A program made the translations under genes and the position numbers. Below, piece after piece: positions 7,601 to 10,600 of a stretch of 64,000 bases of DNA. The stretch is from Octopus vulgaris (taxonomy: Eukaryota): assembly GCA_951406725.2 (NCBI GenBank), contig OX597814.1:51212001-51276000 (forward strand), written 5' to 3'. Positions within the stretch are counted from its first letter, which is position 1; each line of letters starts with the position of its first letter. Under the pieces are notes generated by a model. The model saw only the letters and a program-made list of their open reading frames with translations. It was not told the DNA's origin and did not search any database.

Positions 7601-10600
7601 CTTACTAATGTAGATTACCACTAGTCTCCTTGGATTCTGTTTTATCATTCACACACACATTATATATATATATATATATATATATATATATATATAAAAA
7701 TAAATATAAGAGAGTGGTCACTATAATGCTCACTCTAGCACCAGTTAATCCAAAAGGTTTCAACCGCGTATTTATCGTTATGGTAAAATCTGGCGTGTGA
7801 TTGAGTGGATTTCATCCAGATAGTCTTGGCTGACGAGCTACAAATGGATTTTTTGTAAGTAATATTACATTTAATTCATTAATAGCGAAACAATTGTCCC
7901 AAAATAATCTGTATTTTTGTTATTTTTTATTTGCCCTGTCCGTGTGAGCTAACAGTCGTGCTGACTTTCATGGGAAACATGTATTTTCGTGGTTGAAACC
8001 TTTTGGATTAACTGGTGCTAGAGTGAGCATTATAGTGACCACTCTCTTATATTTATTTTGTAAAAATATTATAATATGTTATAAAATATTATAATAATCC
8101 AGGTTTCTCGTAGCACTAGGCCACTTGGTGTTGAATAAATATACTATTAAATTAGTATCTAATTCTCTCACCCTTATTAATTAATTATAATTATGCTGCA
8201 TTTATTTCTAAATGCTGTATTTGTTTTCCGTGAGAGTTTGGCGCGCTGTTGGTTGGGGCATTTGAATTATAACGTCGGATGTAATCAATTGAACCACACG
8301 CGTATTTATCGTTATGGTAAAATCTGGCGTGTGATTGAGTGGATTTCATCCAGATAGTCTTGGCTGACGAGCTACAAATGGATTTTTTGTAAGTAATATT
8401 ACATTTAATTCATTAATAGCGAAACAATTGTCCCAAAATAATCTGTATTTTTGTTATTTTTTATTTGCCCTGTCCGTGTGAGCTAACAGTCGTGCTGACT
8501 TTCATGGGAAACATGTATTTTCGTGGTTGAAACCTTTTGGATTAACTGGTGCTAGAGTGAGCATTATAGTGACCACTCTCTTATATTTATTTTGTAAAAA
8601 TATTATAATAATCCAGGTTTCTCGTAGCACTAGGCCACTTGGTGTTGAATAAATATACTATTAAATTAGTATCTAATTCTCTCACCCTTATTAATTAATT
8701 ATAATTATGCTGCATTTATTTCTAAATGCTGTATTTGTTTTCCGTGAGAGTTTGGCGCGCTGTTGGTTGGGGCATTTGAATTATAACGTCGGATGTAATC
8801 AATTGAACCACACGCGTATTTATCGTTATGGTAAAATCTGGCGTGTGATTGAGTGGATTTCATCCAGATAGTCTTGGCTGACGAGCTACAAATGGATTTT
8901 TTGTAAGTAATATTACATTTAATTCATTAATAGCGAAACAATTGTCCCAAAATAATCTGTATTTTTGTTATTTTTTATTTGCCCTGTCCGTGTGAGCTAA
9001 CAGTCGTGCTGACTTTCATGGGAAACATGTATTTTCGTGGTTGAAACCTTTTGGATTAACTGGTGCTAGAGTGAGCATTATAGTGACCACTCTCTTATAT
9101 TTATTTTGTAAAAATATTATAATATGTTATAAAATATTATAATAATCCAGGTTTCTCGTAGCACTAGGCCACTTGGTGTTGAATAAATATACTATTAAAT
9201 TAGTATCTAATTCTCTCACCCTTATTAATTAATTATATATATATATATATATATATATATAGGGAGAGTTCATGAAATAAACAAAAGACGAAGACAGGTG
9301 GTGTACAAAACAAATAGATATATTAGTATAATGCTCAGGAATTGAAAAAGTCTTTTACATTTTGAGCCTTTGCTCTTCTACAGAAAGGGACACAGAAAAA
9401 AACAAGGAGAGAAAAAAAAATGTGTGTAGTGGCTAGCGATCTATCATGGCAACTCATATATATATATATATATATATATATATATGTAGAAAACAAAGAA
9501 GGAAAACTAATAAATAATAATGTTTTGATATTTACCACTAATGACAGTAAAACGATACCATCATGATTGGGGCATTTCACAAAACTTGTCGTATCTGATT
9601 TTTCTATTAAATATTCCAAGTCAAAAAGATGTTTGTTTTCTTCTGCAGAAAAATAAAAGTAGATAAACAAAAGTTTAGATTTAAAAGTCAATATGACAAA
9701 GGGAAAATCCCTGCTACTTAACACTATACATATTCATACACACAAAGCACAATCATAGATGCACACATATAAGCACAAACACACATAGATGTTTATTTAA
9801 ATTTAAAAAGAAAAGCACAGACAATAAAAAAAAATCATATGTAAAGTAAATGCAAGTAAATTATATCAGATATACGCACCAGGACAATATGGGCATGGAG
9901 CAAGTATTTGTACAGTTTTATTTCCAAATATGTCAGTTGCTAGTAATCCTGGATACCATTCTTCAATCAGAGAATCAATATGATCAGCTATTTCTCCCAT
10001 TAATCTGGAAAATTTACAAATAAATATGTATTACTATAGTTAAATGACATCAAATTTTAGTAAACCCTTTTTCGCTGTGTAGTTGAGAGGCTTGCCTCCC
10101 AGCCATGTGGTCCTGGGTTTAATCCACTGTGTAGTACCTTGGGCAAGTGTCCTCTATTACAGCCCTGAGTGGATTTGGCACATGAAAACTGAATGAAGCC
10201 TGTCATGTGTGTGTGTGTGTGGGCATGTATGTATACCCACACATACACACACATGAATGGGTGCTGAAAAGTTCCTGATTTCGAGTAAAAGAAAATACAG
10301 GAGGATCAGTAAATTATGATTTTATTCAACATATGCCCCTCTCAGATTCACACACTCATTGCAGTGTTCCTTCAGTTTTTCTAAGCCTTGTAAAAGGACT
10401 TGGAAGTTTGGGCCTCCAGCCAGGCTTTTTGCGATACCCTTAAAGCCAGGAAGTTTTCAAGTACCCCCTCGTGTATGTGTGTGTGTGTGCACGTGTGCAT
10501 GTAATTGTCTTGACATTATATGGTTGATGCATCGTCGTATTAGCAAGGTTGTTTATGTCTAGCCTTCCATGTAAAGTAAATCAAGCTATGGGAAAATATA

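Follow-up and report, generated by a model that had tools for sequence, protein, structure and literature searches.

A 50-nt helix II with a predicted docking loop and a splice donor motif at its tip in the hammerhead ribozyme of an Octopus vulgaris retrozyme

A 64,000-nt stretch of the Octopus vulgaris genome (contig OX597814.1, positions 51,212,001 to 51,276,000; here called the window) carries at 7837-7886 of the plus strand a hairpin which is a real structure and forms helix II of a type I hammerhead ribozyme. In the reading that we hold with moderate confidence, this ribozyme belongs to a retrozyme mobilised by a PLE, the CA/AA internal loop of helix II docks on U1.7, the part distal to this loop is dispensable and the tip is a 5' splice site used by related copies, whose splicing would take away the cleavage site. 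Of this reading, four elements were observed directly: the hairpin, the conservation of its pairing, the tandem organisation of the family and a two-ended insertion footprint. Folding of 7837-7886 gave 4 bp, a CA/AA loop, 8 bp, a UUU/UUU loop, 5 bp and a GUAAUA terminal loop with -13.3 kcal/mol; none of 200 shuffles was equally stable (z = -5.55, i.e. about -5.6), and the helix II pair probabilities were 0.94-1.0, even inside the folded 534-nt circle. Thus, the sequence-only reading had drawn the 50-nt extended hairpin correctly. The rod lies between CUGACGA (7830-7836) and GAAAC-AAUU-GUC (7887-7898), which identifies it as a type I hammerhead's helix II, and the same rod is repeated at 8371-8420 and 8885-8934.

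The predicted ribozyme, the first of three copies, spans 7817-7911 (plus strand); its CUGANGA and GAAA boxes and NUH core are intact around three helices, of which helix I is open, and covariation was found in the helices. The 5' strand of helix I (7817-7829) is followed by the CUGANGA core (7830-7836), whose position 7 is C, A, G or U across subfamilies. The proximal helix II is built of 4 bp between 7837-7840 and 7883-7886 and is continued by the 2x2 internal loop 2, with CA at 7841-7842 and AA at 7881-7882, and by the distal rod at 7843-7880 (8 bp, a U-rich 3x3 loop, 5 bp and the hexaloop), which holds the 5' splice donor GTAAGT (7855-7860; GTGAGT in older subfamilies) at its tip. The GAAA box, a 2-bp palindromic helix III and GUC occupy 7887-7898, with the predicted cut after 7898, and the 3' strand of helix I extends over 7899-7911. 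A 4x4 internal loop had been proposed in helix I. This was wrong, because other subfamilies form an A-U or G-C pair at position 1.5 (paired in 31/41 rows); the proximal helix I has 6 bp, with an A.C mismatch in the subfamily of the window. As a monomer, the hammerhead fold (-21.1) is less stable by 4 kcal/mol than an inactive one (-25.3), and helix III was calculated at +2.4 kcal/mol as a hairpin and at -6.4 as a dimer duplex. The 2-bp palindromic helix III would favour cutting in tandem dimers. According to 10.64898/2026.07.22.740005, 8 of 9 predicted Xenopus hammerhead dimers stayed uncut in vitro.

The ribozyme is embedded in a tandem array at 7765-9235 between two (TA)n tracts (7661-7696 and 9234-9261, neither assigned a strand). 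On the plus strand, unit 1 of 534 nt (7765-8298) is followed by unit 2 of 514 nt (8299-8812), which is without a 20-nt duplication and has its helix II at 8371-8420, and by a partial unit 3 (8813-9235, helix II at 8885-8934), which ends at a fixed long-arm 3' end at unit position ~423. An inverted short arm of 72 nt (7697-7768, minus strand) ends at a second fixed 3' end, at unit position ~295. The family of the window, here family A, comprises subfamilies which differ at the rod (the TTT type of the window and the GCT/ACT type of locus L072); its pattern had at least 2,139 matches in the 2.8-Gb genome and none in the control, and the best matches were 99-100% identical to the window unit. The unit has no ORF. 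Dispersed, non-coding tandem units with one hammerhead each were found, and the element is a non-LTR retrozyme as described in PMC7229834 (Cervera & de la Pena 2020) and 10.64898/2026.07.22.740005 (Li et al. 2026). Possible signs of transcription are spliced joints and an A>G excess in runs presumed, by guess, to be RNA. Folded as a circle, the 534-nt unit is highly self-paired (MFE -157.6, z = -8.1 against 40 shuffles).

The examined loci gave 35 distinct outward 3' ends: 15 lay at unit position 423-425, 19 at 295-343, a cluster whose true end is near 295 since TA runs inflate the figure, and one elsewhere. Hence, 34 of 35 fell within two clusters and nearly all lay in (TA)n. Two fixed 3' ends, an inverted 5'-truncated arm and a (TA)n target together make up the footprint of PLE mobilisation: PLE protein has two RT start sites and extends on both strands (PMC11167929), Hydra-clade PLEs prefer (TA)n (PMC8557442), and the ends and targets of family A match this behaviour. 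Monomers may circularise and then be copied into (TA)n by a PLE protein. A search for homology to the pLTR of an autonomous PLE gave no blastn match of the unit to 14 loci, three of which have PLE-like ORFs. A ~390-nt insertion is present at L009:2585-2970 inside an inverted arm, at unit position 388, and at L003:2212-3078 a family A array has next to it an RT fragment of a different PLE-like family, 43% identical to L189. In the window itself, 44092-45875 (minus strand) contains frameshifted LINE-type reverse transcriptase ORFs. The region ~9280-9420 (minus strand) looks by eye like a decayed PLE end with a minimal-hammerhead remnant beside the array.

Pairing was examined in an alignment of 41 family A variants (42 were found; L128 belongs to another family and was dropped, and the window stands for L001), which leaves out the middle of the rod, where the subfamilies differ in register. 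In this alignment 95.1% of the cells were paired, compared to 27-38% in slid controls; relatedness of the copies inflates the shuffle control. In helix I, 5 of 11 pairs had changed on both sides. The covariation that the sequence-only reading had proposed as a check of helix II was found in part: 98.5% of its cells were paired, mostly by A-U/G-U swaps, but the extension contained just one two-sided pair, in an alignment-ambiguous stretch. The one-sided A-U/G-U changes could be fixed A-to-I edits. In a second family, family D (22 variants, inner hairpin left out), helix II had three two-sided pairs, of which one lies in the extension; in 8 rows a pair of the extension was broken. A shortened helix II was found in a single copy, which keeps the CA/AA loop, versus 2,139 long ones; since family A is young, the scarcity of shortened copies is a weakened test. 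In sequence, the extension is conserved to no greater degree than other parts of the unit (28/34).

Long helices II are common in this genome. Strict cores with a helix II of 32-62 nt, with position 7 restricted to pyrimidines, numbered 5,345 (control 7), and those with a helix II of 6-31 nt numbered 668 (control 9); both counts leave out minimal hammerheads without a 4-nt loop III. A search of the window ribozyme against Rfam gave no match at the gathering score and no hammerhead at E<=10; the length of helix II is the likely reason. The expectation that searches with short helix limits overlook this variant was supported, and such descriptors, together with Rfam, miss most strict-core hammerheads of the genome. 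The examined loci contained 183 distinct hammerheads in 21 families. Among them, family D (L193, L076, L103) is a tandem retrozyme of 583-602 nt with the same two-ended footprint; it gave no blastn alignment with family A, but short motifs near the long-arm 3' end are common to both, so that the two families are perhaps not independent. An RT fragment at L041, considered as partner of family D, is a separate element that merely lies beside it. The families at L189:870-2948 and L244 are abundant, have a PLE-like RT and an endonuclease and carry a hammerhead with a 53-55-nt helix II behind the ORF. The L189 ORF contains YRDD as well as the CxxC and CxH motifs described for Hydra; it had no match in Pfam or in PDB. 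It was rejected as the autonomous partner of family A, as its hammerhead is of another family. As control we used a canonical retrozyme family of 353 nt with a 4-bp helix II and a hexaloop (L110-L128). The window has a further, unrelated hammerhead-like core at 39594-39680 (plus strand); its helix II is 63 nt long (-20.4 kcal/mol), and its loop III is palindromic.

The CA/AA loop is separated from the core by 4 bp of helix II and occupies the usual position of loop 2. In canonical animal hammerheads helix I measures 6 bp and helix II 4 bp (PMC4209133), and U1.7 is paired with the final A of loop 2 (PMC11875169, PMC2632901). In family A (43 variants) a 4-bp helix II was present in 40, the 3' A of the loop in 42 and U1.7 in 42; in family D (25 variants) the numbers were 24, 25 and 25. 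In this genome the canonical retrozyme with a short loop had both U1.7 and the loop A in 4/4, and a PLE-linked family with a 5-6-bp helix II had A1.7 in 68/68. Across the 21 families the association of loop A with U1.7 was not significant (6/8 versus 5/13, p = 0.18). The C at the loop base is off the RNnA motif, though Schistosoma shares it. A precedent is CChMVd(-), which docks via an internal loop 2: its IL2.A8U mutant has a kobs of 0.066, the double mutant L1.U1A/IL2.A8U restores 1.09, and shortening of the helix changes the rate from 2.58 to 2.36 per min (PMC2632901). The suggestion that the CA/AA loop supplies the tertiary contact is thus supported by sequence and position, and docking through this loop is likely. 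A7882 is predicted to form a reverse-Hoogsteen pair with U7905 (U1.7), as in Schistosoma and CChMVd(-); the CA/AA loop would stand in for the terminal loop 2, and cutting is predicted not to require the more distal rod. A helix II cut back to 4 bp plus a tetraloop may fail to discriminate between the hypotheses, since a tetraloop whose last letter is A can itself dock on U1.7 (PMC11875169). Docking of an internal loop as such is already known, since the CChMVd(-) case is direct; a type I case with both partners internal was not found in the available literature text, and figures or supplements of PMC3088659 and PMC2632901 may hold one.

Contigs from four runs guessed to be RNA (X6, X7, X11 and X15) were searched for use of the donor at the rod tip. 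Among the 20 of 33 loose ends listed, at least two, in contigs of X6 and X11 (studies P4 and P7), leave the element at 7850. Both continue with 3 letters which match the L072 subfamily up to its GT and then run on for at least 255 letters. The joints belong to the GCT/ACT subfamily and not to the TTT type of the window; the X6 piece has 3 mismatches to the window, as many as L072 itself has, and that at 7834 is shared. The X11 run-on had one match in genome G000, directly after AG, as a 103-nt exon followed by GTAAG; the exon has stops in all three frames, and the ORFs near it gave no Pfam match among 60 of 168 candidates. The X6 run-on is a repeat with 25 matches, preceded by CAG in 6 of 10 copies viewed, and this acceptor has no unique placement in the genome. 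The joined form of element and run-on had no match in G000. Use of the donor in the sister subfamily is therefore supported by two contigs presumed, by guess, to be RNA, in which it would be joined to AG acceptors. Splicing within the unit was rejected: the two joints listed include no skip joint, and the unit's own acceptors are weak. For the window type, opening of the tip costs 6.5 kcal/mol compared to -7.0 kcal/mol for U1 binding, but in the older subfamily and in family D it costs 11.8-13.3 kcal/mol, and easy access to the donor is therefore not general. Splicing at this donor would retain the 5' half of the core as exon sequence and remove the cleavage site; it follows that splicing and self-cutting would compete for the same RNA, of which they may be alternative fates.

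It is possible, if doubtful, that the donor is incidental. The rod would then be just a part of the self-paired RNA circle, retained for stability, and GTRAG a cryptic site which arose by chance and, as in many repeats, is occasionally exonised. The strong self-pairing of the whole circular unit fits this, and so do the motif counts across families: GTRAG was found in helix II of 3 of 18 long families versus 0.96 expected (p = 0.065, not significant), with a chance expectation of ~0.9 per unit strand, and the canonical and a 399-nt retrozyme family have no GTRAG on the sense strand. Both acceptors, a repeat and an exon closed in three frames, look cryptic. Against this, GTRAG is present in helix II of 39/42 family A and 24/25 family D variants, the GTAAG of family D sitting at a different position; the donor of family A shows only one common change, from GTAAG to GTGAG, by which the consensus is preserved; and shortened rods are almost absent, while other parts of the unit took 16-28-nt indels. 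The origin of the joints was weighed as well. That they are trans-splices, self-cleavage leaving an RNA which ends 44 nt behind the donor and has no cis acceptor, like a spliced-leader RNA, is very unlikely. The likeness consists of the two joints, which share the same 5' piece, and of the lack of a matching source copy: in G000 the 250 kb upstream of the X11 exon contain none, and copies of the GCT or ACT type are likewise missing upstream on C2. The sole family copy within this distance (L263:7725-8536, ~42 kb upstream of the exon, with a CCGA core variant) was rejected as cis source, since it is of the TTTTT-GT type and its letters mismatch. However, family A is young, so insertion polymorphism between animals is possible; the GCT/ACT subfamily dominates the X6 contigs at 7852, the acceptors look unlike those of abundant mRNAs, and family D has not retained the AU5G run that follows the cut. 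In view of the cryptic look of the acceptors, insertion polymorphism explains the joints more simply, and they may be cis-splices from polymorphic insertions into cryptic exons. Quite unlikely, too, is the boldest view, in which the rod is a selected U1 snRNP landing pad, spliceosome and hammerhead decide the fate of one RNA, and each transcript becomes, through self-cleavage, a leader whose stranded donor is trans-spliced to exons of the host, so that a ribozyme would produce a proto-spliced-leader in a mollusc.

Two further explanations concern the rod itself. It could be a site for the PLE protein or for a host dsRNA protein which tunes the ribozyme allosterically, the internal loop not being a docking site. 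The autonomous PLE-like family also has a long helix II, of 53 nt, in the 3' hammerhead of the element at 27 of 30 endonuclease loci, and a PLE hammerhead was cleaved only upon addition of protein (PMC11167929); but the long rods of different families have no common sequence or shape, two families agree with the canonical contact in the loop A, in U1.7 and in helix lengths of 4 bp and 6 bp, and the fixed 3' ends that mark the RT start are 160-290 nt away from the rod. We regard this explanation as unlikely. The sequence-only reading had also proposed an ADAR-substrate module, in which editing would control cleavage. Element transcripts indeed look heavily edited: A>G plus T>C made up 57/61 changed places in X7 (p = 1e-17), 19/25 in X6 (p = 2e-5), 19/33 in X11 (p = 0.004) and 3/8 in X15 (p = 0.70), compared to 37/124 among genomic copies, a control from different animals, with other thresholds and against runs guessed to be RNA. 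Of the unit's 150 A, 18 lie in helix II, which had none of the 19 A>G positions among the 40 of 90 rows listed; the changes inside it were T>C in a single contig and correspond to antisense editing, which head-to-head arrays would produce. Since no listed A>G falls in helix II, the editing likely reflects the long stem of the unit and head-to-head arrays, and an editing module in the rod is highly improbable.

With the metazoan non-LTR retrozymes in the available text of PMC7229834 and 10.64898/2026.07.22.740005 the element has in common non-coding tandem units with one type I hammerhead each, a short palindromic helix III, low GC, a self-paired predicted circle and co-occurring PLEs. Its unit has 534 nt, compared to 170-400 nt (PMC7229834) and 51-972 nt (10.64898/2026.07.22.740005), and whereas those ribozymes have 4 bp and a terminal loop, the octopus ribozyme has a 50-nt helix II with a predicted internal docking loop and a splice donor; no cephalopod retrozyme was found in these parts of the two papers. 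CChMVd(-) (Dufour et al., PMC2632901) likewise has an extended domain II and an internal loop ending in an A that pairs with a loop-1 U, and its distal helix is dispensable in vitro, as is predicted here. It is a viroid hammerhead, however; its loop 1 is a hairpin loop and its internal loop an asymmetric 2:6 one, unlike the type I ribozyme with a 2x2 loop and both partners internal. The type I hammerhead of Schistosoma mansoni shares the 6-bp helix I, U1.7, the 4-bp helix II and the C:A opposition at the base of loop 2 (PMC2632901, PMC11875169), but its loop 2 is an apical hexaloop and not an internal 2x2 loop. PLE hammerheads (PMC4209133; Hydra clade PMC8557442) share the pLTR-type location, the dimer-type helix III and the (TA)n targets, and PLE elements the inverted 5'-truncated arms and two RT start sites (PMC11167929); in contrast to the 50-nt rod, their helix II has 4-8 bp with small loops (Hydra rows, File S2), and PLEs carry an ORF, which the family A element does not. 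A donor inside a hammerhead helix II was not found in the literature text available; nearest is the PLE of D. virilis, in which the 3' end of an intron abuts the hammerhead at helix I.

In sum, the octopus element offers a natural type I ribozyme with predicted docking of one internal loop on another, testable by few point mutants. If the donor is selected, it would link the spliceosome to retrozyme processing, and thousands of young insertions could seed first exons. The findings bear on the question of what role hammerheads of PLEs and retrozymes have in vivo and how they are controlled.
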